From the NCBI GenBank assembly GCA_963804955.1, contig CAWDSQ010000010.1, forward strand, positions 1 through 64,000: DNA of 64,000 nt, written 5' to 3'. The notes under the pieces were generated by a model. That model ran no database searches, was not told the origin of the DNA, and saw only the letters and a program-made list of their open reading frames with translations. Shown here in pieces: positions 572 to 45,575 of the stretch. This stretch comes from an uncultured delta proteobacterium. GTDB lineage: Bacteria; Desulfobacterota; WTBG01; CAIYCZ01; CAIRTM01. How positions within the stretch are numbered: the stretch's first letter is position 1; each line of letters starts with the position of its first letter. Position numbers and translations under genes: made by a program.

Positions 572-2412
572 TCAAATCTGTTCGCACTTGATGCGCAGGG
601 GAGACTGCTTGGCCTCTTTTTTGAGACGGGCAAGGAGCATGCTGATCTCTTCAAGCGACAGGCTGCTGCGGTTTTTCGACAGGTGCAAAAATACCGCGCT
701 CACGCTCAGCAGCGGAAAGCGCCGCTTCGTGCCGTCGCGGTCAATACCGTTGAGATAGCCGTTGCTGCGGTCCCGCTCGCTGTAAAAAGACAGAATGTCT
801 TCGCGGAAGCGTCGAATGAGCATTTGCGTGCGCGGCAGAAGGTGGCCGCGGTTTTTTTCAGTCACCTTCACGCCGGAAAAAAAATCATCACCCCCAATAT
901 GACCGACAAAAGCGCCGCCGTTGGCGCATGATTTCAGCAGGTCGGCAAACAGCAGTATCGCCCGGTCGCCCACACGAAAGCCGTAGGTGTCGTTGAAGGG
1001 CTTGAAATTATCGAAGTCGAAATACACATAGACATAATCATGATTCAGATCGCACAATGATTCGGCGATATAGGTGCTGATGAGGCTGTTGCCCGGCAGT
1101 TTCGTCAGCGGATTCTGGTCGCGGGCTATGGCGATATTTTTTTCATTCAGCGCCTTCAGAAGAGCCCGTGCGCTCATGAACCCGATATAGACGCCGCCGC
1201 TGGTGAGTATGATTCCCTCTGAGCGTTCATCCAGGGCATAAATGTCCAGGATTTCCTCGAGGGGTTTATGGGCATCAACGACAGGGCAGCGCGAAATGAA
1301 GTCGTACAGGGTCTTGCTCAGCCCGGCATTGAGCAGCAGATCTTTGCCGTAGCGTGAATAGGCGTATTCTTTGAGGTCTTTTTCCATAATGAACCCCAGG
1401 GGCTCGTCCTTTTCATTGACCACGGGAATAAAAGTCTGAGCCTTGTGCCGGCGGAACTCTTCAAATACCTGTGTCATGTTGGTGCGGTCGATCCTGACGG
1501 GCGAGATGAACTCCATCTGGTCGGTTATGATACGGTGGTCGCAGTTGGTATACAGGCGGCGCTCCGAGCGGCTCAAGGCGGGCACGTTGTCATACTTGAA
1601 GCTGATGCGTTTGCAGTCGAGCTGAGGCTCCTGAATGAGGTAGCCCTGGACATAATCGCAGCCGATATCCTTGCACACATGGAATTCATCGATCGATTCC
1701 ACCCCTTCGGCGATGACCGCAATGCCCAGCGTGTGGGCCAGGCTGAGCACTTTTAAGACGAACAGTCTTTTTCTTGGGTCCGCGGCGATGCCGGCGATGA
1801 AAAAACGGTCTATTTTGATGAAGTCGGGCTCCGCGTGATAGAGCAGCTGCAGCCCGGAAAAGCCGGTCCCGAAATCGTCAACGGCAATGCGGAAGCCCTG
1901 CTGCTTATAGGTGGTGAGCGTCGTTTTGATGCTGTTGAAGCATTCGAACTGGTGGCGCTCGGAAAGCTCGAAGCAGACCGTGCTGGGCGGCAGGCCATGC
2001 CGCTCAAGTATAGCGGAGGTGTTGCCGGGCCGGTAATCGGGCATGTGCAGAACGCGATTGTCGATATTATAGAACAGGCGGCACTTGCGGTAAAACTCAA
2101 GGCTTTTGAATTTACAGATCGCTTTTTCGCGCAGCCACAGGTCAACCGTATAGAGCAGGCGGTCGGCATAGGCCGCGTCGAAAAAGTCCTGAATGGTCGC
2201 AAAGCCTGCATGGCCGGTATTGCGCAGCAGCACTTCGAACCCCAGGCTTATGCCCGTATGAATGCTGACGATGGGCTGCAGGGCGAAATCAAGGCTGTCC
2301 ACAATCCCGCGCCATAGCGTACTGTCTCCGGGCTGGCGCTCCGGAAAGGCAACCACTGTTGCAGCGGGCTGGCGGTCGGCGGTAGTCAGGGTCGAGACAA
2401 AGCTGGTATCAT
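572..2412 (-). CDS. EAL-CBS-GGDEF c-di-GMP signalling protein
   Basis: ORF 572..2356 has EVL, FELSE, DDFGTGFS, IKIDR, VIAEGVE, QGY (EAL) and DFDNFKPFND...GHIGGDDF (GGDEF variant). An AGGAG-preceded ATG at 2412 joins the frame if one T is added to a homopolymer near 2400. Confidence 0.9.
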
Positions 2413-4393: not shown

Positions 4394-6058
4394 TCAGTCA
4401 GCTTTCACGAATATGGGGTTTGAATAGAACCATAGATCGGCATAGGCTTCTTCTAAACCGTCGATACCCAGGTTCTGAGTAGCAAGAGTGTCGAGCAGAG
4501 GGTTGCCTTCCGCGTCGGTTTCAAAGGGCGTACCCGCGGGCACGTTCGTGCCGCGAAGGCGGAAGTACATGTCTTTATCCACATTTTTTATAGTGTAGGT
4601 GATAGTCTTCCAGCCGTCGTGTTCCCGCCAGTCCTCTTCCGTAAAGGTGGCGATAACCTTTGTGGACTCATTGGTTGCCTTTGTATAATCAGGAGATGAG
4701 GGATCAATTTTTCCGGTCACATCGCCGGCAATAAGGTCAATATGGTCAACATTTACTGCATCGCCATTGTTATTGGTCTCAGGGCTCTTAAAACGTATAA
4801 CGATCTTGATGCCCGGCTTGTTCTTTGTCAGCACAAGCTCCTGCCCCATGGTAGCGGTGTTTTTCGGGCATTTACGGTCAACGATGGTGAAATCAAGCGC
4901 ATTAATCAGATCGCCGTTGACGACAAACGAGTTTCCTGAACGAAGGCCGTTGATATATGCCCGTGGCTTATTTGCATCTTTTACATATACATAGGTTTTC
5001 TGGTATTCGCCGGGCCAGAAATCGTCGCCGCCGTCGGTCCAGTGAAGATGGCAGTCGGAGCTTGCAAAGTTCCACCAGTGCCGTCCTTCGCCAAGCAGAG
5101 CATCCCACAGGCCTCCGACTTTAGCGGTGTAATACCCGGCGCCGCCGTAGGTGCCCGTACCGACCGCGCCTGAGCCGAATCCGCCGCGGTCACTGTTTAC
5201 CTGATGGCCGGGAAGCCCCTCGAAGCCGAAACATACATCGGGGCCGGCATTGTTCAGATCGCGGAAATGATTGATGTCATATCCGCCGGTTGCATATGTC
5301 CCCTTGCGTTCAACATGCGCAGGGACTGTATAGCTTGCACCCGGATGATTTGCCTGAAGCCATGCCACGGCTTCAACCGCTTTTGCATGTTTGGTGAGCG
5401 CTGATTTCACCCAGCCCTGCGCCGCACCGCCGCTGATGTCTGCATCGCTGTTGTCGAATTTGTACTCAAACTCGGCAAGGGCTTTCGTATTGGGATTGTA
5501 TTTATCAAACTGTCCTGTAATGAGTGCTACGCTGCAATGCTCATGACCGGGCATATTCCATTCAAAGCCCTGCAGAATCATTTTGTCAGGATAGTCAGCC
5601 CGGGCTTTCAAAACATCCTGCACAAGATAATCCCGCAGGCTCTGCCACCGCCACATAAGCTGATGGCCGCCGCTTGTTTTTACATCGCCGATGATGGGAT
5701 TTGGCACGTAGCTGTCCCAGTAGACATCCCCTCCATTATCAATGCCATGCCTGCCGTCTCGATTGAAACCGCCGCCATGCTCCGACTGCGTCCACCAGTC
5801 AAGGCCGAATTCCTTGTTTTTCTCCATCATGTAATCATAGGAGTAACTGCCGTCGGTGTAAGTCGTGTGCTGGTGGAAATCACCGGCAAGATAGTCGGAT
5901 ATTCGGTAGCACTTTGGGGTTGTTTCCTTGCCCGTGTTCTGGTGGAAATCAGAGCCAAAATGTTCCCCTGCCAGTGATGCCTGCGCGAGCGTAAGGCTCA
6001 AAGCCGGTACAAGCAAAAAGTTAAGCAGGCCGCTGCTTTTTTTTGTTCTTTTTTTCAT
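4394..6058 (-). CDS. Secreted PHP-family metallo-phosphoesterase
   Basis: Signal peptide, LAGDFHQHT..TDG, SEH, HEH, PAHVER and SSDCH metal-binding motifs, C-terminal YSNPIFV. Confidence 0.75.
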   Translation of the reverse strand: MKKRTKKSSGLLNFLLVPALSLTLAQASLAGEHFGSDFHQNTGKETTPKCYRISDYLAGDFHQHTTYTDGSYSYDYMMEKNKEFGLDWWTQSEHGGGFNRDGRHGIDNGGDVYWDSYVPNPIIGDVKTSGGHQLMWRWQSLRDYLVQDVLKARADYPDKMILQGFEWNMPGHEHCSVALITGQFDKYNPNTKALAEFEYKFDNSDADISGGAAQGWVKSALTKHAKAVEAVAWLQANHPGASYTVPAHVERKGTYATGGYDINHFRDLNNAGPDVCFGFEGLPGHQVNSDRGGFGSGAVGTGTYGGAGYYTAKVGGLWDALLGEGRHWWNFASSDCHLHWTDGGDDFWPGEYQKTYVYVKDANKPRAYINGLRSGNSFVVNGDLINALDFTIVDRKCPKNTATMGQELVLTKNKPGIKIVIRFKSPETNNNGDAVNVDHIDLIAGDVTGKIDPSSPDYTKATNESTKVIATFTEEDWREHDGWKTITYTIKNVDKDMYFRLRGTNVPAGTPFETDAEGNPLLDTLATQNLGIDGLEEAYADLWFYSNPIFVKAD

Positions 6059-6351
6059 TATAATCCCCTTTATTAAATTATTAATCACACTAAGAAGGTG
6101 TTTTATTCTGTACGCATCTTTTACTTTTAGCGGTGCCCCGTTGTGTTTATCCGTGTATTTCCGGCAACCGGAACACCCCTTGTACACGTAGCCAATCTCT
6201 GTTTGCTCCCACCACCTCCTTTCCTCTGATGGATCTGTTCCGTTGCCGGATGTCCTTCAGCATGACGAGGTTCCCGCTTTTATTAATAGGCGCCGATTTT
6301 TCGTCTCGGTCTGTTCTGCGTGCACCTGTGCGCAACAAGTGTTTACGGGTA

Positions 6352-6405
6352 AGTGTAGCCGGTAAGTTTTAAGGCGAAATAAGGATCAGGTTAAATACTA
6401 GTTAA
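6352..6405 (-). promoter_or_regulatory. Pho-box-like array plus -10 (TACACT) for the PHP phosphoesterase
   Basis: TTAA at 6402, 6391, degenerate 6380, 6369; -10 at +15. Confidence 0.75.
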
Positions 6406-6450: not shown

Positions 6451-6524
6451 AAAAAGGAAGGGGGCCTTGCGGCCCCCAGGGGAGGAAAAGTAACACTGAA
6501 GTGAGCAGCCTCAGCGTACTCTTT
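6451..6524 (-). ncRNA. Candidate Pho-regulated small RNA, sibling 1
   Basis: Own upstream promoter array. Predicted transcript AAAGAGUACGCUGAGG-loop-CUUCAGUGUUACUUUU hairpin, CCUCCCC linker, GGGGGCC-GCAA-GGCCCCC terminator and pyrimidine/U tail. No ORF. Confidence 0.55.
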
Positions 6525-6591: not shown

Positions 6592-7645
6592 CTATACCCG
6601 GCCGTGCCTGACATGAAAAGACAGGGTGGAGCCCGTGACCATGCTGCGGCCGGTATAAATAAATATGAACAGCCACAGCCCCTGAAGGCCGATAATGCCG
6701 GCAGGCTGCCATAAAAGGCGCAGTCCCGCTGCGATATCCATGCTGCGCACCGTGCTGTCAAGCGGGAGCAGGGCAAGTACTGCGGCATAGGCAATGCCGG
6801 CGGCGCTCATGATCTGATAGGCTGATATGGCGCCTCCTCCCCGGTAGTCGGCCCGGAAAAATTCAGAGGCAATGCGCCACAGATGATTGACGGTAACGGT
6901 CAGTATGAAGGCTGCACGCAGGTGGCCGCGCAGAATCAGCCAGCATCCCGCAAGCCCGGCGGCGCAGTTGATCACAGCGGTGACGGCCTGAATAGGAATG
7001 ACGGGCGTACCATCAAGCCCGTGGGCATAGGCAATCTTTTTTGTAGCGCCCGAAAAGATAAAAGACCTGGAGCGAAAAAAGCCTCCTCATCCAGACGGGA
7101 GCGCGCGACAGGGGCATGCCGTAGCAGCAGCCGAAGCTGATGCAGGCCAGCCTGCCCAGACCTTCACCAAAACAATAAGCTGTGCAAACTGCGGCAACTA
7201 CAGGCAGTACGCGCAGGTCCCAGCCCAGTTTTTCTCCAACCGCCGCCTGCACGGCAACCACTGCAGCGGGAATGGCGATGATGCCGGCAAATGCCGCCCC
7301 TCCCACGGTGAGCACATGGCGTTTGCGCTCTACGAGGCGCGCGATGATGGAAGCAGCCGGTATGCAGATGGCCAGTACGGCAATGGTCATGGCGGCTATG
7401 GCTGCTGCAGGGGTTCCCATGGCCCCCATCAGCATGATTAAAACCGTGACGGCAGCCGTATAGGCTGTTGCGCTGAAAAATCCGTACCAGGTTAGATTAA
7501 CTCCCGACCAGGTCCCGTCGGGGTACTTGCGCAGCGGCACGGCCGCCATCATCTGCCAGCGCTCATCAGGAAGGCGCTTGAAAGCCCATGCCAGCAGGAG
7601 CGCAACGGGCAGAGCCAGACACAGGGTGAACAGCTCAGGAGTCAT
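6592..7645 (-). CDS. Lgt (prolipoprotein diacylglyceryl transferase)-like membrane protein, frameshifted near 7070
   Basis: Multiple TM helices, GRLACISFGCCYG (Lgt GR.g..nGe.yG-like motif) and WRIASEFFRAD (R...EFfR). Two ORF pieces, 7013..7684 and 6592..6975. Confidence 0.75.
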
Positions 7646-8687
7646 GGCGTCCTCCTGTTTTGTTGTCCCCGTTGCCGGCAGCAATGGCCCGGCCGATCAG
7701 AGACCGGACCTGAACGTCCGTTTCAACCAGCTGCGCGCCGAAGCCCTGCGAATAACGGCTGTAGGCGCCCTGATGGCGCATATTAGCGATGATATCATCG
7801 CAGAAGAGAACCCTGTTTTTTTGAAACACAAGCACGTCGGTTGAGCTGCCGGGGCGGTAGAGGCTCTTGGGGCAGCCCTTTTCCAGGAACAGGCCCTGCA
7901 CGACGAACTGCGGGCTGTCGTAGCGCTTCCGGCTGTAGCACTGCACGATATCGCCGATCATGAGGGCCACGATTTCAATCATGGCAACAAGCCCTATGCC
8001 CGTGCCGCCAACCACGTCGGTGTCGATGATGGTTACCACGCGTTTATTTTTTGAATAGGGCGTTGCGACCGTGACGACGGCCGACGGATTTGCCGGATGA
8101 TAACAGCCGGGAATTTCATAGAGCTCAAGCACGCGGCCCGAGACCGGAACATGGTTATAGTGGTACTTGTCGGGCGTGAGGCGGAATACGGCGAAATCGC
8201 CGCCCCTGAACTCCTGCAGCCACAGGGAGCGGTCAAAGCCGATCAGCTCATCGAGGTTGAAGAATTTTTCCTTTAAAAAAATCTGGGATGTGTCGGCAAG
8301 CGACCCCACCAGTAACCTGCCGTCGGCAGGAGAGACGATACCGTCGGGATCGGCGGGCATGGGCCGGGTTTCCCAATAACGTATTTGACGCTCGAATATT
8401 TTTTTTGCCGTGTTCAGCCGCTCGCCCGGTTCGAGGCATTCCGAAAGATCTATGCCAAGCCGCTCCACGAACCGGTGCGCGCCAGCCAGGCGCGACAGGG
8501 TCGGCAGCTCGTAATTCACCATGCTCAGCAGGCCGGACATGCGCGACGAGGTCAGCGCCTTGAACAGGGCCGGCGACTGCTCACGGTCGCTGTTGTACAG
8601 ATAGGAAATAATGCGGTCACCGTAGAGCCGTTCGGTCATGACACGGCGGGTGCCCCTCTCAATATACTGATGCTGCGGTATTTTCAT
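7635..8687 (-). CDS. Phosphatidylserine decarboxylase-family protein
   Basis: VSPADG, FRLTPDKYHYNHVPVSG and PGSST self-cleavage motif. Confidence 0.85.
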   Translation of the reverse strand: MKIPQHQYIERGTRRVMTERLYGDRIISYLYNSDREQSPALFKALTSSRMSGLLSMVNYELPTLSRLAGAHRFVERLGIDLSECLEPGERLNTAKKIFERQIRYWETRPMPADPDGIVSPADGRLLVGSLADTSQIFLKEKFFNLDELIGFDRSLWLQEFRGGDFAVFRLTPDKYHYNHVPVSGRVLELYEIPGCYHPANPSAVVTVATPYSKNKRVVTIIDTDVVGGTGIGLVAMIEIVALMIGDIVQCYSRKRYDSPQFVVQGLFLEKGCPKSLYRPGSSTDVLVFQKNRVLFCDDIIANMRHQGAYSRYSQGFGAQLVETDVQVRSLIGRAIAAGNGDNKTGGRHDS

Positions 8688-11085
8688 GCTGTGTTTCCTC
8701 ACAAGCCCCTGCCGCTTCTTCAGCCTGAATACACAGCAGCAGCAGAGCGATAAAGGTTCTCAGCGAATCCTCCGACAGTTTGCCTGCGGCCATCACGTGT
8801 CCGAGGTCTGCGGCACATGCCTCGGCGCTGCCCCCGCCGAGCAATTCGGCCAGCGTTTCGCGAAACTGCCCGCGGCCTTCAAGGGCCATGCGGTCAAGCA
8901 GCCGCGCCGAATCAAGACAGACTGTTGAGGCTTCCTCACTATGCTGGCGCCGCAGCACGGTGCGGTAATAGCCTTCGGCGGCGGCATTGAAATCGCCTGC
9001 GGGCATGCCCATGGCAGAGCGCCCGCCGCACTGGTCAAGAATGCCCGCCGTGAGCCTGCCGGCTGCAGATGCTGCTGGGTTAGTGATCCGCTCTTCCAGG
9101 CGCTCCAGGGTAGCCTGCATGCCCATATTTTCGATAAGATCAGCGGCATCCTGACGAATGATGGTCAGCAGCGCCCGAAGGTACTCATCATTGTGGCATC
9201 TGGTATATCCGGGATACCGGTTGCTGGTGCGGGTCTTTTTCATGCTGCCGAGAATGTGGGTCAAGAACCGGTTTTGCGTATCGCTGCGCACGAAAAATGT
9301 TGGTATGCCGATTGCAGCGCCGAAAAATATTTGCCGCCTTTCACTTTCACAGGTCGGGCTGTCGGGGATATGCTCATGGGTGAGTTGCCCGTCGGCAATG
9401 TATTTATAGGCCAAAGCAGTGAGAAGTGTCTGCAGATTGACGGCATCGGCCATATCGCCAAGCAGTGTTGCAAACAGGCTGTAATAGCGCCCTTCAAAAC
9501 CCGAAAAACCCATAGCAGCATGCTGCCGAAGCCGGTAAAACAGATAGGGCGACATGCGCTCGTCGAAAACTCCCAGATCGGCAAGGTCTTTTTTCAGGCG
9601 CAGGTCATTGCCGGGCGAGCCGTCGAGTGCCGGGCTCTGGTCCGTACTCATGAGCGCAACCGGATAATCGATCAACCGGTAATCCTGAACAAAATCGCCC
9701 CGGAGTTTAAACAGCCCGCTGACAAACCGGTCAAGCGCGGGCGGGCCGAAAGGCGTCAGCGGCTGGCCCATGATTTTCACATCGGCCTTCAGCTTCCAGC
9801 GCCGCCACAGCATGCGCAAATGCGTATAATCAAGCTCATGGGGCAGAAATCCGAGCACGGTTTCTGGATGGAAATCGCCGAACTCCAGCCGGTAGGGCGC
9901 AGCGCTGTACGTGCCCACAAAAAGGGGGAGGAAATGCTCGACGATTTTTATAGCCAGATCCCCGCAATATTTTTCATCGGCTGCGGTGAACGCGGAACCC
10001 CGTGCCGCGAGCAGGTCCGTCAGTTTCCGGCTACCGAGACTGACATGGGTTCCGTTATTGGCAAGACTGATATTTGACAGATTCGGCAGCACAACCAGAT
10101 CGCGCGTAATAATGCCCGCGTCCTTGAGCTTGGCAAGCGTATTGAGCTGGCTGCGTGACAGCACCTGGTGGCACAGTATCATGTACTGGTGCTTCTCCTG
10201 GCCATGGTCCCAGCCTGAAAGACAGGGGCTCATAAACAGCTCGCGATAGAAACCGTCGCTGATTATGTTGTTCAGGCTCTTCTGGCGTACGGGTGGATGA
10301 GGCGCAAAATAGGCAAGAACGCGCTGGCCGCTTGCGGCAAGCCCGAACCGGTTTTCGCCGTACTGTATCAAAAGCTGGGTCAGCAGAAACCGCAACGCTG
10401 TTTCCCGGGCAGGTTGCGCTCCCATGCCGCGACCGGGCAGCAGCGCCGGCGTATAGAATGAAAATGTTTCAGGCGAGGTGTTGTCGTTCAGGAAATGGTC
10501 CATGTACCTTCGGCCGGTTTGACGGACGGCTTCAGGCGTAAATGCCGAGGCGCTGACTGCATCGGCAAGGGCGAGCTTCAAAAGGTAGCTGACGGGCACG
10601 CGCAAGCACCGTTCACCCCTATCCTTGATGATGAACTTCGCGGAATCAATACGGTCCGGACTCTGCGGGTCGGTTTTGTCGGCGCGCAGATCGTCATGAA
10701 AAACCGAACGCGCATAGCTGCTCAGGCAACGGTAGGGAAACCGCACCCAACTATGCTCCCAGACATTGTCAGGGTTATTGTTCAGATACTTTTCAAGCTC
10801 GGCAATAAGCCGCTGCGAGGTATCGCCGGACAGGGTGCGCCGAATAATGTTTTTATAATAATTGGACTGCTCAATTGTACGGGGCAGGTCAACAGACTCT
10901 TTTGCGCCTATTACGACGGTTTGCAGCTCGTTTTCAACCCCGGCAGTCACATCGCCTGAGGTAAAGGGCAGGGCTTCCACAAAGGCATCGCCGGCGGCGC
11001 AGCGTATGCCGAGGGCCTCACAAAGTCTTTCCGGATTTGTCTTTCCGCCGCTTCTGAAAGGGTAGGAAAGTACAGGTGCTGTCAT
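8659..11085 (-). CDS. Conserved hypothetical protein with glutamate-cysteine-ligase/carboxylate-amine-ligase-like motifs
   Basis: 808-aa intact ORF. AGVENELQ, NNGTHVSLG and FEGR occur in the order of the GCS/GS-fold G.E.E, G.H.h.g and E.R motifs (fold assignment is inference). Confidence 0.6.
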   Translation of the reverse strand: MTAPVLSYPFRSGGKTNPERLCEALGIRCAAGDAFVEALPFTSGDVTAGVENELQTVVIGAKESVDLPRTIEQSNYYKNIIRRTLSGDTSQRLIAELEKYLNNNPDNVWEHSWVRFPYRCLSSYARSVFHDDLRADKTDPQSPDRIDSAKFIIKDRGERCLRVPVSYLLKLALADAVSASAFTPEAVRQTGRRYMDHFLNDNTSPETFSFYTPALLPGRGMGAQPARETALRFLLTQLLIQYGENRFGLAASGQRVLAYFAPHPPVRQKSLNNIISDGFYRELFMSPCLSGWDHGQEKHQYMILCHQVLSRSQLNTLAKLKDAGIITRDLVVLPNLSNISLANNGTHVSLGSRKLTDLLAARGSAFTAADEKYCGDLAIKIVEHFLPLFVGTYSAAPYRLEFGDFHPETVLGFLPHELDYTHLRMLWRRWKLKADVKIMGQPLTPFGPPALDRFVSGLFKLRGDFVQDYRLIDYPVALMSTDQSPALDGSPGNDLRLKKDLADLGVFDERMSPYLFYRLRQHAAMGFSGFEGRYYSLFATLLGDMADAVNLQTLLTALAYKYIADGQLTHEHIPDSPTCESERRQIFFGAAIGIPTFFVRSDTQNRFLTHILGSMKKTRTSNRYPGYTRCHNDEYLRALLTIIRQDAADLIENMGMQATLERLEERITNPAASAAGRLTAGILDQCGGRSAMGMPAGDFNAAAEGYYRTVLRRQHSEEASTVCLDSARLLDRMALEGRGQFRETLAELLGGGSAEACAADLGHVMAAGKLSEDSLRTFIALLLLCIQAEEAAGACEETQHENTAASVY

Positions 11086-11120
11086 GCTAATGTCCTTTAA
11101 ATTTTTATTTTTCTGTTTTT

Positions 11121-11174
11121 GTTATAGCCGCCGCAGGTTAAAGCTGTGTTAACTTTATGATAATTATCAATTAA
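11121..11174 (-). promoter_or_regulatory. Pho-box-like array plus -10 (TATAAC) for the ligase-PSD-Lgt operon
   Basis: TTAA 11171, ATAA 11160, TTAA 11149, TTAA 11138; -10 at +15. Confidence 0.8.
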
Positions 11175-11199: not shown

Positions 11200-12225
11200 T
11201 CATGGGCCGTCCGGTTGCTGCTGCCGGACTTTGGGTGCAGCTTTTAACACGGTACCGCCCGGCATGAGGTGGGCTTTGATTTTTTGCACCATGTCAGCCC
11301 AGGCGGCAGCGCCAACGCTCTGCTCATTGATAATCATATGGCGGGCGATTGCGGCATCGGTAGTATTGTCTTTTACTATGCTGACAAGGTCCCACCGGTC
11401 AAACCCATTATCGCTGACGAACTCCTGTAGATTCTCGAAGGATACGAATTCATCCTCCTGATCCATGAAAAGGAGCGTCGGCACATTGAGCCGGGGGCCG
11501 AGATTTGCCTCAAAATTCCTGATTGCGTCAAAAAGAGCAGTATAGCCAGCCACGGGCGTGCCGTCATTGGCACGCTGATTTTCAGGGGCTTCGCTGTCGA
11601 TGACAAGCTCGGGGAAAGGCTTAAGCGGCCTCAGATGATACCCGATGGACGGATGGAGCGTAAGGGCCGGAGCCAAAAGCAGCATCCGATCAAAATGAAC
11701 GCCGGGCTTGGCCGCCAGCAGGTCGCAGCCCAGCAGGCCGCCAAGCGAGTAGCCGACAAAATATAAGGGCACGCCGAGTTTGCGGGCCCGGTGCATGGCT
11801 TGCACATAGGCCTGATGAACTTCATTGAGCCATAAAAAATACGCAACGCTCTTGAAGGATTCAAGGCGGTCGCGCTTATCATCGGCAGGGCGGCTCCCCC
11901 GGCGAATGAAATTAGCGCCATGGCCCCGCAGCGAAACGTTCAGCGCTTCGATGCCTGCACTGTTCAGAATGGCAATAATGGGCTCCATCATTTCCGGCCT
12001 TATGTTTAAGCCATGCACAATCAGCGCGATAGCAATGGGCTTTTTATAAGAAGCGGATTTAAACCAGCGGCTGCAATGATCCTGACGGGCAATAAGCTCT
12101 TGTATGAAGGCGTTTGCCCCTGCAGGAGCTATGCGGGAAAGGTCGCCACTATACATATAAATACAGGCGGCAACAGCCGCCGCTGCAGCGAATCCAACCA
12201 GCACGAGCCTTCGATAGGATTTCAT
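11200..12225 (-). CDS. Alpha/beta hydrolase (esterase/lysophospholipase-like) with N-terminal anchor
   Basis: VHGLN, LRGHG and GYSLG nucleophile elbow; late Asp/His candidates (DEFV, RHM). Confidence 0.8.
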   Translation of the reverse strand: MKSYRRLVLVGFAAAAAVAACIYMYSGDLSRIAPAGANAFIQELIARQDHCSRWFKSASYKKPIAIALIVHGLNIRPEMMEPIIAILNSAGIEALNVSLRGHGANFIRRGSRPADDKRDRLESFKSVAYFLWLNEVHQAYVQAMHRARKLGVPLYFVGYSLGGLLGCDLLAAKPGVHFDRMLLLAPALTLHPSIGYHLRPLKPFPELVIDSEAPENQRANDGTPVAGYTALFDAIRNFEANLGPRLNVPTLLFMDQEDEFVSFENLQEFVSDNGFDRWDLVSIVKDNTTDAAIARHMIINEQSVGAAAWADMVQKIKAHLMPGGTVLKAAPKVRQQQPDGP

Positions 12226-12286
12226 ATACAGGCGCCTTTTTTTACGGTCAGGTTCTGCAGGGCCGTCTGGGCTTCCTGCTGCTGAT

Positions 12287-12357
12287 AAAAAAAGGGGGCC
12301 TTGCGGCCCCCTGGAGGAGGAGAGATGCTGAAAAAAGCGGTTTCAACACTTCTCTGT
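12287..12357 (-). ncRNA. Candidate Pho-regulated small RNA, sibling 2
   Basis: AGAGAAGUGUUGAAA-loop-UUUCAGCAUCUCU hairpin, CCUCCUCC linker, AGGGGGCC-GCAA-GGCCCCCU terminator followed by a U-run. Same architecture as 6451-6524. Confidence 0.55.
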
Positions 12358-12361
12358 TTTT

Positions 12362-12417
12362 AATATATACGGCTACTCGGTTAAAAAAAAATAATGGGTT
12401 GATTAATTTACGGTTAA
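12362..12417 (-). promoter_or_regulatory. Pho-box-like array plus -10 (TATATA/TATATT) driving candidate sRNA 2
   Basis: TTAA at 12414, 12403, degenerate ~12392, 12381. Confidence 0.75.
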
Positions 12418-13063: not shown

Positions 13064-13106
13064 TATATTATATCTAGTTTTGGTTTTGTCCGCCCCAGTG
13101 TAAATT

Positions 13107-13160
13107 TTAACATTTTTTTAACACAGCAATAATCCCCGCATAATTTTTATTTCATAACAT
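13107..13160 (+). promoter_or_regulatory. Pho-box-like array plus -10 (TAACAT), distal
   Basis: TTAA 13107, TTAA 13118, ATAA 13129, ATAA 13140; -10 at 13155. Confidence 0.65.
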
Positions 13161-13213
13161 AAGCCCGGCATTCAGCCATGCCCCGCAGACGCAGCACGGG
13201 GCTTCCATCTTAT

Positions 13214-13267
13214 TTAACCGAAAATTAACCCGCGCTTTATTTGCCGTTAACTCTCCACGGGTATTGT
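13214..13267 (+). promoter_or_regulatory. Pho-box-like array plus -10 (TATTGT) for the TonB/ExbBD operon
   Basis: TTAACCGAAAA TTAACCCGCGC TTTATTTGCCG TTAACTCTCCA cggg TATTGT. Confidence 0.8.
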
Positions 13268-13304
13268 TTAATCAAAAATGCACATCTCAGAGAGGAGCAC
13301 CTGC

Positions 13305-14054
13305 ATGAAAAAAAGACACCTATGGCTGCTGGCGTTAATGCTGGGTATGGCCCCGGCAACGCAGGCCGCGCAGCCCGGGCAGATCAAGCAGACCATCGAT
13401 CAGTCCATTAAAACCCGGGAAACGACCCAGAAAAAAGCCGCCGACTGGCAGGGCAATAAAGAGCGGATGAAGAACCGCTACTTTCAGTTGAAAGAAGCCC
13501 TTGAGATGACCGGGCTTGAGCTGACTCATATGCAGGAAGTGACGGCCAAACAGGATGCCTACCTGGTGCGTACACGGCGCAAGGTGCATGAAATGGAAAA
13601 AATGGGCCGCGAGCTGCAGCCGTATCTCAACCAGCAGGTTGCCCGCCTGTCCGATCACATTAAAAAAGATCTGCCGTTTCTGCCGGAGGAACGCAGCGCG
13701 CGGATTACAACCATGCACGGCATCTTGAACGACCCCGAGATACCCTTGAGCGAAAAGCTGCGCCGCACCTTCGAGGCAATGCGCGTGGAAATGGACTATG
13801 GCAAATCAATTGAAACGACCCGCACGGAGATCGACTACAAGGGGCAGAAGGTTTTGGTGAACATGCTGCGTCTGGGCCGTACAGCCCTGCTGATGCAGAC
13901 CATTGATGAAAAGGAATCAGGCCTGTATGCCGGAGGAACATGGGTGCAGCTGCCCGGGCAGTACGGCGCGGAGATAAAGAAAGCCATGGAAATAACCCAG
14001 CGCCGCAGGCCTGTCGACTTTGTAAACCTGCCCCTTCGGGAGATCAAACAATGA
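13305..14054 (+). CDS. DUF3450-family periplasmic coiled-coil protein
   Basis: Signal peptide, DLPFL.EER..R, SEK.RR..EA...E.DYG and LRLGR motifs; first gene of an Exb operon. Confidence 0.85.
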   Translation: MKKRHLWLLALMLGMAPATQAAQPGQIKQTIDQSIKTRETTQKKAADWQGNKERMKNRYFQLKEALEMTGLELTHMQEVTAKQDAYLVRTRRKVHEMEKMGRELQPYLNQQVARLSDHIKKDLPFLPEERSARITTMHGILNDPEIPLSEKLRRTFEAMRVEMDYGKSIETTRTEIDYKGQKVLVNMLRLGRTALLMQTIDEKESGLYAGGTWVQLPGQYGAEIKKAMEITQRRRPVDFVNLPLREIKQ

Positions 14055-15496
14055 AGCATATCGTATTTTGTGTAGCGCTGCTGCTGTGCACGATTATGTG
14101 CCGCGGCTGCGCCTGGGCCGAAGATAACCAGACCGCGTCGGCCGCCACATCACAGCAGATCACCAGCGCCATCGATGAAGCACAACGCAAAGCCGATGAA
14201 GACGCAAAAAAGGCGCGGGAAGAAGCAGCGCTGAAGGAAGCCGAGGTTATGGACCAGCAGGGCACGCTCCAGGCGACATTGGAGCGTCTTGAAGCTGAAA
14301 AAAAAGCTCTGGACGAAAAGCTCGATACGGCAAAAAAACTCTATGAGCAAAACGAGCAGGAAACCGCCCTGCTGCAGAAGCGCAGCGAGGAGCAAAAGGG
14401 CCAGGCCGACGAGATAGCAGGGTCCCTGCGCGGTATTGCCCAGGACCTGGGCACGTCCATCAGCCAGTCTCTGGTGTCCGGCGAAACGCCGGGCCGCAGA
14501 AAAATCCTCGAGCCCCTGGTGACGCAGAACGAATTTCCCTCCTTTGAAGCCATCGGCGGCATGGCCGATCTCATGTTCGAGGAAATGAGCCGCAACGGCA
14601 AAATTTCCACCACCGCCATGGCCTTCACCGATGACGCGGGCCGCGAGACCCGGGGCGACGTTGTGCGCATAGGCATGTTCAATGCCCTGTGGAAAAAAGA
14701 CGGCAAGGTGGGCTATCTGGAATATTCGCCGGCCAAGGAGACCTTTTCGCAGTTTTCCGTAAAAATGCCCGGCGCCTATCTCGGCGAAGCCAAACAGTTT
14801 ACGGCTGGTGCGTCGCAGGGGCTTTATCTTGATCCGTCATCGGGAGGCGCCTTCCGTTTCATTTCCGACATGCCCGACTGGTGGGAAGAGCTGAAATCAG
14901 GCGGCTCCCTCATGTGGCCTATCTGCCTGTGCGGAGTCATCGCCGTCATTCTGGCGATCGAGCGCTTTATCACGCTCATGCGTCACAGCAAAGCCACGGC
15001 GCAACTTGCCGATGCCGTCACGCCGGTGCTGCAGCGGGGCGACTGGGACGCGGCGCTGCGCATAAGCAAAGGCAGCAGCATCGGCCTTGCGCGCGTTCTT
15101 GCCGCCGGCATCAACCACCGGCAGGAGCAGACCGAGGTGCTTGAGTCGGTCATGGAAGAATCCATTCAGAGCATCCGGGGCCCCCTTGACCGCAATATGG
15201 CCAGCCTGCAGATTATCGCCGTGGTGTCGCCGCTGCTGGGGCTGCTGGGGACCGTCACCGGCATGATTTCAACCTTCAATATGCTCACGATCTACGGCTC
15301 AGGCGATCCCCGGCTCATGTCGGGCGGTATTTCCGAGGCCCTTGTCACCACCGAATACGGCCTGTTCATATCCATTCCCGTAATTCTCGTGCACGGCTAC
15401 TTTCAGGGCAAGGTGGGCGACATTATTGGCCGCATCGAGGAAAAAGCCATGACGCTGGTCAATTCCGTGAAAAAAATCAAAAGGCAGGCCGCATGA
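14051..15496 (+). CDS. Large ExbB/TolQ/MotA-family protein with N-terminal periplasmic coiled coil
   Basis: SPLLGLLGTVTGMI and GGISEALVTT.YGL motifs. Confidence 0.9.
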   Translation: MKHIVFCVALLLCTIMCRGCAWAEDNQTASAATSQQITSAIDEAQRKADEDAKKAREEAALKEAEVMDQQGTLQATLERLEAEKKALDEKLDTAKKLYEQNEQETALLQKRSEEQKGQADEIAGSLRGIAQDLGTSISQSLVSGETPGRRKILEPLVTQNEFPSFEAIGGMADLMFEEMSRNGKISTTAMAFTDDAGRETRGDVVRIGMFNALWKKDGKVGYLEYSPAKETFSQFSVKMPGAYLGEAKQFTAGASQGLYLDPSSGGAFRFISDMPDWWEELKSGGSLMWPICLCGVIAVILAIERFITLMRHSKATAQLADAVTPVLQRGDWDAALRISKGSSIGLARVLAAGINHRQEQTEVLESVMEESIQSIRGPLDRNMASLQIIAVVSPLLGLLGTVTGMISTFNMLTIYGSGDPRLMSGGISEALVTTEYGLFISIPVILVHGYFQGKVGDIIGRIEEKAMTLVNSVKKIKRQAA

Positions 15497-16086
15497 ACTG
15501 GGAAATATCCACCTGGGAGTATCTGGCGACAGGAGGGCCCGTGATGGTGCCCCTGCTGCTGGTCTCGCTTGCCATGGCGTTCATGATAGCCGAACGGTTT
15601 TTGTATTTTGCGGGGATCGAGCGCGGCGATATCAACGCCGATGCCGTCATCAGGGGCATTGAAAACAATGCCCCGGCTGCCGGCGGCGGGCTGTGCGCAA
15701 CGGTGCTTGATCGGCTGCTGGCGGCCCGGGCCGTTTATGGCGAGCTTGATCTGCGGGTGCTCCATGAAACCGTGCAGGGCTTTCTTCCCGAACTGCGGCG
15801 GGGGTTCAATATAATCGCCTGCCTGATAGCCGCGGCTCCGCTGCTGGGGCTGCTGGGGACCGTGACCGGCATGATCGAAACCTTTAATGTCATGAATATT
15901 TTCGGCACCACCAATCCCAAGGCCATGTCCGGGGGCATATCCGAGGCCATGATCACCACGCAGTACGGTTTGGTGCTCGCCATTCTCGGGATGTATGTGC
16001 AGATGTTTGTAGAAAAACGGGCGCGCCGCTGCGAGCACATGGTCGAGGAGCTGACGCGCCACATTATAAGGAAATTTCAGCTATGA
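15493..16086 (+). CDS. exbB: ExbB/TolQ/MotA proton channel protein
   Basis: APLLGLLGTVTGMI and GGISEAMITT motifs. Confidence 0.9.
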   Translation: MNWEISTWEYLATGGPVMVPLLLVSLAMAFMIAERFLYFAGIERGDINADAVIRGIENNAPAAGGGLCATVLDRLLAARAVYGELDLRVLHETVQGFLPELRRGFNIIACLIAAAPLLGLLGTVTGMIETFNVMNIFGTTNPKAMSGGISEAMITTQYGLVLAILGMYVQMFVEKRARRCEHMVEELTRHIIRKFQL

Positions 16087-16503
16087 TCCGCTCACGACGA
16101 AGGACCGAAGGGGACAAGCCCATTGAAATCAACATGGCGCCGCTGATCGACATGACCTTTCTGCTGCTGATTTTTTTCATCGTAACCACCAGCTTTGTGA
16201 AAGAAACAGGCCTTGAGGTGAACCGGCCCTCGGCCAAAAGCGCGGAGAGCAAGGAAAAAAGCACCATCATGGTGGGCGTAAGCAGGCAGGGGTTCATTTA
16301 CATGGAAAACCGCTCCATTGATTTGCGCTCCGTGCGGGCGAATGTCGAAAAGGCCATGGCCGATAACCCCGATGCGGGCGTCATCAGTCGTGGCGGACAA
16401 GGAAAGCTCCACGGGCCTTGTGGTGAATGTCATCGACCAGTGCAGGCTTGCCGGCGCCAAGGCGGTATCGATAGCAACCAAGAGGGAAGACGAGTCCACA
16501 TGA
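16083..16503 (+). CDS. exbD: ExbD/TolR biopolymer transport protein (frameshift ~16386)
   Basis: INMAPLIDMTFLLLIFFIVT; the C-terminus VVADKESSTGLVVNVIDQCRLAGAKAVSIAT is in an adjacent frame. Confidence 0.85.
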
Positions 16504-17150
16504 GCGTTCTGCAGCCTGTCCACCGGCGCTATTTTGCGGCACTGGCCATAGCCTGCGTTGCCACCGCCCTGTGCCTGTTCGTGCTGCCGGTATCGCTGCG
16601 CTTCAGCGCGCCGATGAAGAAAGATCTGCTGCGCGAGGCCCTGCAGCTTGCCGATTACCGCAAGCCGCCGCCGCCGCCGCCGAAAAAGCAGGAGCAGCAG
16701 AAAAAGCCCGAAGCGCAAAAGGTTCAGCCCAAGCTCAAAAGCTTCATGCCGAAAATGGACATGGACTCTTCGGCCCTTGCGGGCAAGTTTCAGTTCGACC
16801 TCGGCCTTGCCGGCGGCTCGGGCGCGGGTGTCGGGATGAATCTGGGGGCAAAGATATTCGACGAGTCAAAAGTCGACGCCAAGCCCGTGGCCCTGTTCCG
16901 GACGCAGCCGATCTATCCGGCAAAGGCGCAGGGCGAACAGCTGACGGGCCGCGTGAGTTTCCGGTTTCTGGTTGACCGCGACGGCATGGTCAAAGACGTT
17001 GAGATAGCAAGCGCTCAGCCGCCCGGTATTTTTGATGATGCCACCATAGCGGCTGTCAAGCAGTGGCGTTTTCAGCCGGCAAAAGTCAAGGGAGAGGCGG
17101 TCGCCTGCTGGTGCCAGTCGTCAATTAAGTATGAACTTGATGTCGAGTAA
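16500..17150 (+). CDS. tonB: TonB energy transducer
   Basis: TM anchor, Pro/Lys-rich linker, P.YP..A....G.V...F.VD.DG.V and WRFQPA C-terminal domain. Confidence 0.9.
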   Translation: MSVLQPVHRRYFAALAIACVATALCLFVLPVSLRFSAPMKKDLLREALQLADYRKPPPPPPKKQEQQKKPEAQKVQPKLKSFMPKMDMDSSALAGKFQFDLGLAGGSGAGVGMNLGAKIFDESKVDAKPVALFRTQPIYPAKAQGEQLTGRVSFRFLVDRDGMVKDVEIASAQPPGIFDDATIAAVKQWRFQPAKVKGEAVACWCQSSIKYELDVE

Positions 17151-17168
17151 AGGAATAGGAGGAGAGAT

Positions 17169-18388
17169 ATGAAAAAATTAGTGGCTCTGATGGTTCTGTG
17201 CGGTTTCATGGCAGCGGGCAGCGCGGCAGCCGACGACGGCGAGATCAAGTGGGACACCGTGCCCGATGAGACCAAAACAGCGCTCTATGAAGCGCAGCAG
17301 GATATGAACGGCGGCAAGATGGATAAAGCGCTGAGCGACCTTCTGAAATTTCAGCAGAAGCGTCCAAATACAACCATTTTCTGGTCGAGTTCAATATCGG
17401 CACGCTCTATGGCCTGCAGAAGCAGCCGGATAAGGCAATTGCGCATCTGGAAAAAGCCGTGGAGATGGAAAAATCCTACAGCCCCATCTGGATGAACCTC
17501 GGCAAGCTGTACTACCAGCTGCAGGCTTTCGACAAGGCAGGGGCCGCGCTGGAGCAGTCGTTCCGGTGCAGCGTTCAGCAGGAAACCGACATACTCTACA
17601 TGGCCATGGCGTCCTATTACCAGGCCGGCGATCTGCCAAAGGCCACGGCCCTGGGCGAGGAGCTGGTGCAGGTATTCCGCCGCGACAGCCCTGAAATCGT
17701 GAGCCTGCTTGCGGGCATTTATATACAGACCGGCAATTTCGGCAGCGCCGTTACCATGCTGGAAACGCTGCTTGAGAAAACCCCCTCCGATGACAAGCTT
17801 TGGAAAATGCTGGCCCAGGCGCATTTCAAGAACCAGAAATACCGCGAGGCGGCCATAGCCTATGAAACCTTCGGATATCTCAGGGAGCTGGGCCGCGATG
17901 AACTGATAGTCATGGGCGACCTGTACACCATGGTGGGCGTGCCCCTGCGGGCCGCGCAATACTATGAGCTGGCCCTGCAAAACGGCGGCACTGCCGATGA
18001 ACAGGAAAAGCTGTCGGTTGCCTACTACTGCGCCTATGAATTCGACAAGGCATCCGCTGCCGTCGATGGCGCCCTTAAGGAAAAGCCAACGGTGGAGCGG
18101 ATGCTGTTGAAGGCGCAGCTGTGCTACCTGCAGGAGCGTTTTGTGGAAGCCCAGCAGCATTATGTGAAAGCGGCGGAGGCCATGTCCAAGGACGGCCATG
18201 AATGGCTTATGGCGGGCTACTGCGCCCTGCGCGGCGGCAATACCAGCCGCGCCCGCGAGCTTTTAAGCAAGGCCGCCGAATTTCCGACGCAGCGCCAGGA
18301 TGCTCTTGCCATGCTCAAGGCGCTGCAGCCGGCCGATGATTTTAAAAAGGCGATGCAGGAATTAAAGGAAGCGCAGCAGCTGCTGTAG
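17169..18388 (+). CDS. Periplasmic tetratricopeptide-repeat protein (frameshift ~17370)
   Basis: Signal peptide and TPR helices (WMNLGKLYYQ, WKMLAQAHF); two ORF pieces. Confidence 0.8.
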
Positions 18389-18422
18389 GGTTCTCAAAAA
18401 CTGATATGCAGGGTGGACGAAC

Positions 18423-26649: not shown

Positions 26650-26726
26650 TCCTTTGAGGCAGAGCGTGTATGGGTTCAGCGTATGCAGAATCGTATCACA
26701 GGAAGAGCGGTAGCGCGATTGACGGT

Positions 26727-27420
26727 ATGATAAGCAGGCAGAAAAATATTGCACTGGTAGAAGATGACCCCGATATCGCCGAACTGATCATCCTGCATCT
26801 AAAAAAGAGCAGCTATGATGTTACTGCTTTCCCGGACGGCGCAAGCTTCCTGCATTTCCTGGAAACAGAGGTTCCCGCGCTTGTGCTGCTTGATCTGATG
26901 CTGCCGGATATCGATGGGCTTGAAATCTGCAAGATCATGCGCGATCGCGAAATGCTTGCCGCCGTGCCTATCTTAATCGTCACGGCTAAAAGCCTGGAGA
27001 TGGACAAGGTTCTCGGGCTTGAACTGGGAGCTGATGATTATCTGACCAAGCCGTTTTCTCCCAAGGAGCTTGTTGCGACGGGTCAGGGCGCTCTTGCGCC
27101 GGCAGGCGCCGGTGGATCAGCAGGCGCAGCGTATCGAGGTGGGCGGTGTTTTGACCCTTGATCTTGTCAGGCATGAGCTTACCGTTCGCGACCGGCGCGT
27201 CGAACTTACCTTCACGGAGTTTAAAATTCTTGAACTGCTTGCAGCAAAAAAAGGATGGGTGTTCAGCAGGGAGAAGATTTTAAACCATCTCTGGGGGGAG
27301 GGGAAAGCAGTCATTGACCGTACGATTGACGTTCATATACGGCACTTGCGCACAAAGCTGGGATCGGATGCGCAGTTCATCAAAAACATCCGGGGCGTCG
27401 GGTACAAGGTGGAAGAATAG
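26727..27420 (+). CDS. OmpR/PhoB-family response regulator (frameshift ~27078)
   Basis: VEDD, LLDLMLP, TAK, GADDYLTKPFSP receiver; LTFTEF, RTIDVHIRHLR, IRGVGY winged helix. Confidence 0.9.
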
Positions 27421-27495: not shown

Positions 27496-27753
27496 CTAAC
27501 GGTTGGGCCTTCTGCTTTTTGCTGTTTCGGATTTCAGATATTTTTTTATCTGCCTTGCGGTATCGTTATGATTTTTGCCGGCTGCAAAATTTTTTCGGTA
27601 ATTTCCGTTTCGGGCGATAGTTTCGGCCGCCCTTGAATCAAGTTTCATAATTCCCCGTTTCAGCCAGGCCCCCGGATCAAAGGCCTGCACTGACTGCGCC
27701 GGTAGCACGAAGCATACTGCAACAATGAGTCCAAGAAAAAGTTTGCCTTTCAT
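27496..27753 (-). CDS. Small secreted hypothetical protein
   Basis: GGAGG RBS and signal peptide MKGKLFLGLIVAVCFVLPAQSVQA. Confidence 0.6.
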   Translation of the reverse strand: MKGKLFLGLIVAVCFVLPAQSVQAFDPGAWLKRGIMKLDSRAAETIARNGNYRKNFAAGKNHNDTARQIKKYLKSETAKSRRPNR

Positions 27754-27806
27754 AGCCTGCCTCCATCGCAATGTACAATCATCAGTTTTTCTGTTTCTCT
27801 GCAGGC

Positions 27807-27860
27807 AGTATGGCCTTAACGTATTAAGCGGATATAAAAATACGGTTAAGAATGTGTTAA
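27807..27860 (-). promoter_or_regulatory. Pho-box-like array plus -10 (CATACT)
   Basis: TTAA 27857, 27846, degenerate 27835, 27824; -10 at +15. Confidence 0.7.
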
Positions 27861-31623: not shown

Positions 31624-32676
31624 CTACTGCACTATCGCAGCTCCGTCATAGGTGGCTGACTTTAAAATCGCCTCAGCCTTTTTAACTGCTTCAGCCGGCA
31701 GCGGCGCATAGTCAAGGCCCTCTGCAAGCTGCTGGCCCTCATGCAGAATCCATCCCAGGAGATTTACAAGATCCGCGGCCTTTTCTTTTGAGCGTCCGGC
31801 ATAGTTCTGTTCTTTGTAAAACACCAGCCAGGTAAAGCCTGAAATCGGGTAGCCGTCTTTGGCTGCAGTGTTGACGATGCTCACGCGCGTGTCATCGGGA
31901 ATGGCCACGCCTGCGGCGGCGGTGACCGATTTCATGGAAGGCTTAATGAAAACGCCCGACTTGTTTTTGACATCGGCATAGGGCATTTTGTTCTGCACCG
32001 CATAAATAAGCTCAACATAGCCGATAGCGCCGGGCACCTGCTTCACAAGGCCTGCCACACCGGGATTGCCTTTGGCGCCAAGGCCGTTCGGCCAGTTGAG
32101 CGACTTGCCCGCGCCCACGCGCTCTTTCCATTCGGCGCTGACCGTGCTCAGATAATCGCTGAAAATAGCCGTGGTGCCGCTGCCGTCTGAGCGATGCACG
32201 GTGGCGATATTCATGTCGGGCAGCAGCATGCCCGGATTGACATGTCAACGATGCGCTTGTCATTCCATTTTTCAATTCTGCCGAGGAATATATCAACGAT
32301 CAGGTTCGAGGTCAGTTTGATTGCCGGATCGCCGGGTACATTATAGGTAATGACCACGGCGCCAAGGCAGGTGGGAATATGCAGAATGGGGGCCCCGGCT
32401 TCCGCCATTTCCTTGTCTTTCATGCAATCGTCAGTGCCGCCGAAATCAACGGTCTTGGCCTTCAGCTGCTGAATGCCGCCGCCCGAGCCGATGGCCTGAT
32501 AATTGACCTTAACGCCTTTTTCCTGGTTGTAGGTGTCAAACAGCTTGGAGTAGATACGGGAACGGGAAGGTCGCGCCTGCTCCCAAAAGCTCTTTGGCCT
32601 CGGCCCGCGCACCAGGCAGCAAAGCTGCGGCCAGGGCGAACAAAAGCGTGATCACGGTGAGCGCTGCTTTTTTCAT
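31624..32676 (-). CDS. pstS: Phosphate-binding protein PstS (system 1, frameshifted)
   Basis: VNYQAIGSGGG, HRSDGSGTT, GAIGYVE and YPISGFTW across ORF pieces. Confidence 0.95.
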
Positions 32677-45562: not shown

Positions 45563-45575
45563 CAGGCTTTGCACC

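Follow-up and report, generated by a model that had tools for sequence, protein, structure and literature searches.

What would a bacterium make with three adjacent genes for a ligase of no recognised family, a paralogue of phosphatidylserine decarboxylase (PSD) and a relative of the prolipoprotein diacylglyceryl transferase Lgt, when the genes lie behind a promoter with the architecture found in front of phosphate-uptake genes? The question is raised by a stretch of 64,000 nt (positions 1 to 64,000 of contig CAWDSQ010000010.1, assembly GCA_963804955.1; the window hereafter) from an uncultured delta proteobacterium, in which the trio lies on the minus strand between 6592 and 11085. Its genes probably make the head group of a membrane lipid, and on balance we favour as their product a lipid of the type recently described under the name N-butyramide cysteine glycerols (BACys), i.e. 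a glycerolipid that contains sulfur and nitrogen but no phosphorus and would be formed when phosphate is scarce.

The three genes, their linkage and their proteins

The minus strand of the window carries, between 6592 and 12225, an alpha/beta hydrolase gene, an open reading frame (ORF) of 808 aa, a PSD-family ORF and an Lgt-like frame. The 808-aa ORF (8659-11085, minus strand) encodes a protein predicted to be cytoplasmic, and its stop is overlapped by 29 nt by the PSD-family ORF (7635-8702, minus strand), which yields 355 aa when read from the GTG at 8702 or 350 aa from the ATG at 8687. The Lgt-like frame starts at the ATG at 7645, overlapping the PSD stop by 11 nt, and the operon ends in an intrinsic terminator (6453-6480, minus strand; GGGGGCCGCAAGGCCCCC and a T-rich tail). 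The motifs quoted in the original prediction, which was made from the DNA sequence by itself, are all present, namely GVENELQ (residues 49-55), NNGTHVSLG (343-351) and FEGR (530-533) in the ligase, PGSST (284-288) in the PSD-like protein, and GRLACISFGCCYG and RIASEFFR in the Lgt-like protein. That prediction also described three overlapping genes, a description that fits the ligase and PSD-family ORFs but fails for 6592-7645 as a single ORF, since this segment of 1054 nt is read in two frames; the observation can thus be confirmed only in part, given the frameshift that the third gene shows in the assembly.

To find out how far the three genes belong together, 401 genomes sampled from the phylum were examined, 339 of them of high quality. 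The ligase family is present in 44 of the 401 (39 of the 339 high-quality genomes), as a single copy and with a patchy spread, and the Lgt-like family, at E<=1e-40, is likewise present in 44 of 401. Both families occur together in 43 genomes, the exceptions being one genome in which a contig end truncates the match to the ligase (G213) and one assembly of 250 contigs (G129). Regions of 18 kb were taken from 20 of the 43 other matching genomes, which we picked from the best matches. The order ligase, PSD-like, Lgt-like is found in all 20 and the genes are contiguous in 19; in L041, the remaining one, the trio is interrupted by two genes, one for a GT4 protein and one unknown. The same order is found in two relatives of the window locus (L007 and L008) and in a metagenome-assembled genome of the Latescibacterota (L009; 49% identity). 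Hence, the expectation that the trio would be conserved together was borne out, and that it constitutes a conserved three-gene module is nearly certain.

At E<=0.1, neither Pfam nor NCBIfam has a family that matches the 808-aa protein, and a profile of its family retrieved no match from the PDB sequences at E<=10. Of 7999 candidates that were scored, 2962 proteins fall into the family at E<=0.001, and it has 724 representatives of clusters formed at 50% identity. Among the best 120 of the 2962 matches, those that carry a name are all 'hypothetical' and none has a Pfam domain, and the clusters found in a protein-atlas search consist only of 'hypothetical protein' entries of the Thermodesulfobacteriota. 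The structure was predicted with confidence using AlphaFold2 from 36 sequences (pLDDT 91.3, pTM 0.92). The best Foldseek rows are all glutamate-cysteine ligase (GCL), GshF or YbdK, with a probability of 1.00, and the top 11 are GCL or GshF. Using VIA-align, 410 residues of the model were aligned with Escherichia coli GshA (1va6_A; Z 16.5, rmsd 4.1), followed by YbdK (1tt4_A; Z 15.7), PafA/Dop (Z about 14; 14.5 for 4bjr_B) and the glutamine synthetases (Z about 9; 9.0 for 1hto_A), with unrelated rows at Z <=4. The fold of glutamine synthetase (GS) and GCL that had been proposed on the basis of short motifs is therefore supported by the model.

The ligase of the trio shares the GS-type carboxylate-amine ligase fold with GshA (1VA6, 2D32, 1V4G), YbdK (1R8G, 1TT4) and PafA/Dop. 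Its conserved Glu-x-Glu, His and Glu-x-Arg motifs lie on strands of the central sheet of the model. The residues concerned, E51 and E53 (conservation of 90% or more) and the invariant H347, E531 and R533 (36 sequences), sit on beta-strands 46-53, 346-352 and 529-535, and are candidates for metal- and ATP-binding residues. A residue-level mapping onto GshA was dropped, as both the profile-profile comparison (hhalign) and the PDB profile search were empty. At 808 aa the protein is longer than these enzymes (about 370-520 aa), from which it also differs in having no Pfam or NCBIfam match and no detectable sequence similarity to them, and unlike GshA it is always encoded beside the PSD-like and Lgt-like genes and not beside glutathione genes. 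No gene with PF04262 or PF04107 was found in the genome, which is 87% complete, and there is no other GCL in sight. Taken at the level of the model, the 808-aa protein would represent an unrecognised family of GCL-fold ligases for which there is no curated model.

The second protein belongs to the PSD family (PF02666, E 5.7e-37, 127.8 bits against a cut-off of 22) and falls far below every NCBIfam psd equivalog cut-off, the best being NF001941 at 133.8 bits against 371. Little or no variation is seen in the motifs SPAD, YHYNH and PG(S)ST in 20 members of the family, among which P284, G285, S287, T288, D127, H181 and H184 do not vary, and SPAD and YHYNH align with MPAD and YHRVH of E. coli PSD (7cnw). 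The self-cleavage site G-S(S)-T and the Asp and His residues of E. coli Psd (PF02666; 7CNW, 6L06) are thus kept. The profile of the family has matches to 7cnw (5e-17) and to 9jer, a PsiD-like tryptophan decarboxylase (4.7e-6). The protein differs from E. coli Psd in a conserved N-terminal region of its own of approximately 100 residues and, as proposed here, in its substrate, which would be a gamma-glutamyl group and not phosphatidylserine.

The third protein is related to Lgt. Its intact homologue in L008 scores 41.9 bits with PF01790 against a cut-off of 24.9, whereas the N-terminal piece from the window (frame A), taken alone, scores 20.8 bits and lies under that cut-off. When the Lgt-like profile was aligned with the genome's own Lgt using hhalign (probability 96.1, 215 columns), the motifs GR..C...GCCYG and R...E..R were matched, with GRLACISFGCCYG opposite GRLGCFFAGCCYG and WR..SE..R opposite FRLFEELFR, and R165, R257, E261 and R264 are invariant in the family. 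The only probable Foldseek match of the AlphaFold2 model (pLDDT 88.5) is E. coli Lgt (5azb; probability 1.00, TM 0.43/0.52). The protein therefore has the fold and the aligned motifs of Lgt (PF01790, 5AZB), though the Tyr and His positions of the E. coli enzyme are not kept. A canonical lgt lies elsewhere in the genome (contig C5, 209.5 bits), as does a short-type housekeeping psd (contig C20). The PSD-like and Lgt-like genes of the trio are consequently extra paralogues and, as had been anticipated, not the sole psd and lgt of the organism.

E. coli Lgt has seven helices, with its catalytic loops in the periplasm. The model of the Lgt-like protein has nine, one beyond the Lgt-homologous region at each end, and the positive-inside bias at the homologous loops is the opposite of that in Lgt. 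Lys and Arg number 13-24 in loops L1, L3, L5 and L7 plus the C-terminus and 0-5 in the remaining loops in 22 of 22 sequences, and the conserved catalytic motifs lie in L5 and L7. For the Lgt encoded elsewhere in the genome, a manual count found a weaker charge in the homologous loops and a stronger one in the intervening loops (SREAKR, KKYR, KNRK and the KKRNR tail). Under the positive-inside rule, the bias would orient the Lgt-like enzyme towards the cytoplasm, with its catalytic loops on the side of the membrane where the ligase works.

The Pho-type promoter of the trio

The promoter (11121-11174, minus strand) lies in the 114-nt gap before the ligase gene and consists of four hexamers at an 11-nt period (TTAATT, 11174-11169; TTATCA, 11163-11158; TTAACA, 11152-11147; TTAACC, 11141-11136), a spacer of 9 nt and the -10 element TATAAC (11126-11121). 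The array scores 21 of 24 and its direct repeats abut the -10 element where a -35 would otherwise stand. Across the window, the two-hexamer pattern was counted 16 times where 3.96 were expected, and none of 100 shuffles reached 16. Genome-wide, there are only seven four-hexamer arrays scoring at least 20/24, whereas three block-shuffled versions of the genome had 0, 0 and 0. The window, an unusually clean Pho island, contains five of the seven, and the other two precede ppx and a phoBR-like pair of genes for an OmpR-type regulator and a histidine kinase. The promoter at 34573-34626, in the divergent region between the two pst-type operons of the window, precedes a porin-pstSCAB-phoU operon and has the same layout (TTAACC, TTAACA, TTAACC, TTAACA, 9 nt, TAAAAT). 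Calling the sites Pho boxes is therefore well founded, as the architecture of the trio's array is common to the pst promoter and to the ppx and phoBR-like sites.

In L007 and L008, the array is kept at -88/-90 from the start codon. Among 24 loci, a significant array was found upstream of the trio in 12 (p<=0.005, with a mononucleotide shuffle as the null). Judged from these sequence patterns, the trio is probably under Pho control. Regulation by Fur was also considered, on account of a Fur-like palindrome (TGATAATTATCA) inside the array, and was rejected, as the Fur-box consensus has no match in the window at three or fewer mismatches.

The proposed lipid and the alternatives

Desulfatibacillum alkenivorans, when limited for phosphorus, exchanges nearly all of its phosphatidylethanolamine (PE), phosphatidylglycerol (PG) and cardiolipin for other lipids (Ding et al. 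2024, PMC11181052). These comprise glucuronosyl lipids and a new class of sulfur-containing aminolipids, tentatively named BACys, which were seen only under phosphorus limitation, give a head-group fragment C7H13O3N2S+ (m/z 205.064) and include a BACys-diacylglycerol (DAG) species with 31:0 acyl chains whose [M+H]+ is C41H79O7N2S (m/z 743.5587) (PMC11181052). The producer belongs to the same phylum-level group as the window genome. In the main text of that paper no genes are named for BACys, and neither could a gene assignment be found in the open-access PMC and bioRxiv literature to late 2026, in which the term 'butyramide cysteine' occurs in this paper only. BACys denotes a class of lipids, not a set of genes. 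The original prediction held that no pathway with this gene set had been described. None was found in the open-access literature, but a lipid class that fits the genes was described chemically in 2024. Those checks of the original prediction that can be run by computation all came out in its favour.

The fit can be put as arithmetic. Loss of CO2 from gamma-Glu-Cys (C8H14N2O5S) gives C7H14N2O3S, equal to the BACys head-group formula, and this, joined as a thioether to DAG(31:0) (C34H66O5), minus H2O gives C41H78N2O7S, the [M+H]+ of which matches the reported BACys exactly. Therefore, an amide bond, the loss of one CO2 and one diacylglyceryl transfer account for the whole lipid. In the scheme that we propose, the GCL-fold ligase would link glutamate to cysteine at the expense of ATP, forming an amide of the gamma-Glu-Cys type. 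The Lgt-like enzyme, which if it faces the cytoplasm would meet its acceptor there, would then move the diacylglyceryl group of PG onto the thiol of cysteine, a chemistry identical to that of Lgt except that the acceptor would presumably be a small peptide and not a protein, and glycerol-1-phosphate would be released, the phosphate of which the cell could reuse. Finally, the PSD-like pyruvoyl enzyme would strip the alpha-carboxyl from the glutamyl residue to leave S-diacylglyceryl-N-(4-aminobutanoyl)cysteine. The last two steps could occur in either order, and glutamate decarboxylated before ligation would lead to the same product. The CO2 is assigned to the glutamyl end because a pyruvoyl enzyme needs a free alpha-amine beside the carboxyl, which only this end has; a decarboxylation there predicts 4-aminobutanoyl-cysteine as the head group and fits the name 'butyramide-cysteine'.

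Several points weigh against this assignment. The hhalign comparison of the ligase family profile with E. coli GshA gives a probability of 0.09, i.e. no sequence relation, and for this reason the substrates of the ligase are assigned from its fold and from the logic of the pathway. The structure of BACys is itself tentative, being based on tandem mass spectrometry (MS2) only (PMC11181052), and the formula match fixes neither the isomer nor the linkage, as an ester or ether link would give the same formula. No named Desulfatibacillum protein appeared among the best 120 of about 2960 matches in two homologue searches, and no such name in a cluster look-up of 10 ligase-family proteins; the carrier lineages named in the homologue searches are Geobacter, Trichlorobacter, Desulfonema and Desulfococcus. 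Upstream of the trio, 12 of 24 loci have no significant TTAACA-type array. Genes for phosphate starvation or lipid remodelling lie beside the trio in 12 of 21 loci, a count that has no chance-rate control and comes from loci of our choosing. Finally, the assembly has the Lgt-like gene in a disrupted form.

The last point could mean that the module is a decaying cluster of pseudogenes in this organism. The 1054 nt of 6592-7645 are not a multiple of three. Frame A (7013-7645, minus strand), which covers approximately residues 1-190 of the family, is ended too early by the stop at 7013-7015, and the remainder, in frame B (6592-7083, minus strand) and covering approximately residues 189-350, ends at the natural stop at 6592-6594. 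Frame A matches residues 1-203 of the intact 350-aa protein of L008, a 93%-identical relative, at 83% identity, and frame B matches residues 189-350 of the same protein at 75%; the Lgt-like profile aligns the two pieces to positions 1-203 and 188-350. Compared with L007 and L008, both of which have intact Lgt-like frames, the window has one surplus base, and this alignment together with contigs of public sequencing runs places the one-base insertion at 7066-7080 (minus strand). At position 7069, one base is absent from every covering contig in all four of the public runs compared, though none of these runs contains half of the sampled words of the window (best share 0.30) and none is recorded as RNA.

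A pseudogene cluster would account for the extra base in the assembly, but we consider it rather unlikely. Both halves of the gene are otherwise intact and retain the identities given above, and the promoter, start sites and terminator are all intact. Moreover, the same assembly splits or truncates genes for an OmpR-type regulator, two pstS, an amidase and an Amidase_3 protein as well as the housekeeping psd, which lies in two frames on C20 (sites at 26670-27420, 31624-32229, 35484-35993, 44157-44906 and 45532-46924 in the window, and C20:250900-251575), a pattern to be expected from indel errors. Because of these other split genes, the frameshift is read as an assembly error, which it probably is, though this is not proven. 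The assembly seems to be rich in single-base indel errors, and apparent pseudogenes in it need checking.

It is unlikely that the trio builds or modifies a different membrane-lipid head group, for example with the ligase adding an amino acid to phosphatidylserine or PE and the Lgt-like enzyme swapping head groups on an acceptor of another kind. Such a product would fit the linkage of the genes, their Pho context and the lipid-remodelling genes nearby, the ligase has no sequence relation to GshA, and the Geobacter, Trichlorobacter, Desulfonema and Desulfococcus carriers are not reported to make BACys in the literature examined. On the other side, the amide bond, single decarboxylation and thiol diacylglycerylation arrive at the BACys formula with no extra step, and no other orphan lipid that fits the trio was found in the open-access literature.

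There is only a slim chance that the module makes a soluble thiol or peptide metabolite, or that the PSD-like protein decarboxylates a free amino acid in the manner of PsiD, with a role for the Lgt-like protein other than lipidation. GCL-fold enzymes usually give soluble products and the PSD-like profile does match the PsiD-like 9jer, but its match to E. coli PSD is far stronger, the ligase and Lgt-like genes are nearly always found together (43 genomes with both and one with each alone), and the Arg, Glu and Arg motifs that align with the genome's own Lgt are kept. Least probable of all is a variant of lipoprotein maturation, in which the Lgt-like protein would be a second prolipoprotein transferase for scarce PG and the other two enzymes would modify lipoprotein N-termini, for while the third gene does belong to the Lgt family and phosphorus starvation depletes PG, the normal donor of Lgt, the charge bias predicts the catalytic loops to lie on the cytoplasmic side in all 22 sequences, away from exported lipoboxes, the ligase has a soluble, ATP-dependent ligase fold, and the genome already has its canonical lgt.

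A BACys-type lipid hence remains the product that we favour. The full scheme makes further claims, namely that an Lgt family member of inverted topology with a non-protein acceptor, a GCL-fold ligase and a PSD paralogue that takes CO2 from a gamma-glutamyl group together form the BACys gene set, that the first of these swaps the head group of PG in one step at the cytoplasmic leaflet for a dipeptide derived from gamma-Glu-Cys and returns glycerol-1-phosphate, and that this route is widespread in anaerobic Thermodesulfobacteriota and present in other phyla also. In this complete form it is plausible but falls a little short of probable. A related known system is the PlcP/Agt route, a Pho-controlled swap of phospholipids for phosphorus-free lipids (Sebastian et al. 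2016, PMC4796936), and glycosyltransferase and phosphoesterase genes of that kind neighbour the trio in several genomes. However, PlcP/Agt cleaves the head group off to leave DAG, which is then glycosylated, whereas the trio would exchange the head group in a single Lgt-type transfer, the new one being, as proposed, a decarboxylated dipeptide.

If the scheme is correct, the trio would supply the genes for an orphan lipid class that nearly fully replaces phospholipids in a phosphorus-starved sulfate reducer, and would add a third phosphate-sparing remodelling route to the glycolipid/betaine-lipid and ornithine-lipid routes. The Lgt family would gain its first small-molecule acceptor and a flipped topology, and a large family of ligases, not covered by any curated model, would be defined. 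The genes could also serve as markers of phosphorus stress, and of a lipid substitution of 'sulfur and nitrogen for phosphorus', in anoxic sediments.

Neighbouring genes and other Pho-type promoters

The genes around the trio in the 21 loci were surveyed with Pfam for 94 of the 127 flanking ORFs, the other 33 being for the most part those farthest from the trio. Genes related to phosphate comprise ppk, found together with a Zn-phospholipase C and a DUF2062 protein (L040), alkaline phosphatase (L044, L046), PhoH (L047), PsiE (L052), an OmpR-type regulator with PstS (L048, L052) and metallophosphoesterases (L053, L009). Others encode GT4 proteins of 817-874 aa (L041, L047, L055), an MGDG synthase-like protein with PAP2 and a DAG kinase (L043), a Lipase_3 protein (L055) and an Aas-like acyltransferase (L050). 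The GT4 genes lie beside or inside the trio (L041, 2195-4648; L047, 3402-5864; L055, 12452-15076), and the N-terminal half of their products, approximately 430 residues, is without a Pfam match. These large proteins are candidates for a glucuronosyl-lipid synthase co-induced with BACys.

The alpha/beta hydrolase gene upstream of the trio (11200-12225, minus strand; Hydrolase_4, PF12146, E 4.5e-13) encodes a protein with an N-terminal hydrophobic or lipobox-like segment. It had been suggested that the hydrolase may take part in the pathway, but the case is weak. A hydrolase adjoins the trio in only 5 of 24 loci (the window, L007, L008, L052 and, with a different type, L040), and as it is rarely adjacent and lies upstream of the Pho-box promoter it is not considered to be part of the core. 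The 597-aa PHP-domain protein encoded on the other side (4394-6187, minus strand) was also rejected as a member of the module, as none of the 23 other loci has a homologue of it next to the trio (E<1e-5).

The layout of the trio's promoter recurs a third time, on the minus strand, as TTAACC (12417-12412), TTAATC (12406-12401), ATTATT (12395-12390) and TTAACC (12384-12379), followed after 9 nt by TATATA (12369-12364). Two hairpins occur within about 70 nt after it, the second being an intrinsic terminator (12312-12293) with a T run. The region 12286-12417 has a predicted folding energy of -31.9 kcal/mol (z -4.39; 0 of 200 shuffles fold as well) and no Rfam match, and the boxes and hairpins are conserved in L008. 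This region is a candidate for a Pho-controlled small RNA or for the leader of the hydrolase gene. The hairpin of the trio's own terminator (6453-6480) has a near-identical 28-nt copy at 12287-12314 (89% identity, 5834 nt apart), and the two hairpins flank the block made up of the hydrolase gene and the trio.

Further Pho-type boxes in the window precede other genes. The 597-aa PHP-type protein is a secreted, CehA-McbA-like metallohydrolase (NF038032, E 6.3e-14, under its cut-off) with a two-hexamer box (TTAACTagtatTTAACC) upstream at 6389-6405, and is likely to be a phosphate-scavenging phosphoesterase. Boxes at 13105-13230 precede an operon on the plus strand (13278-20231) that encodes DUF3450, ExbB, ExbB and an ExbD-TonB fusion, together with a TPR protein and a TonB-dependent receptor fragment; in L007 and L008 a DUF3450-ExbB pair is divergent from the hydrolase gene. 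This arrangement suggests TonB-powered uptake under phosphate control. An EAL-GGDEF-CBS protein (572-2356, minus strand) lies behind a perfect two-hexamer box (2943-2959), and in L058 a protein with the same set of domains adjoins the trio, so that a link between c-di-GMP and phosphate status is possible. Finally, a secreted protein of 91 aa and of no known family is encoded directly downstream of phoU (27496-27771, minus strand), behind a Pho-type array that scores 21/24 (box 27844-27860).

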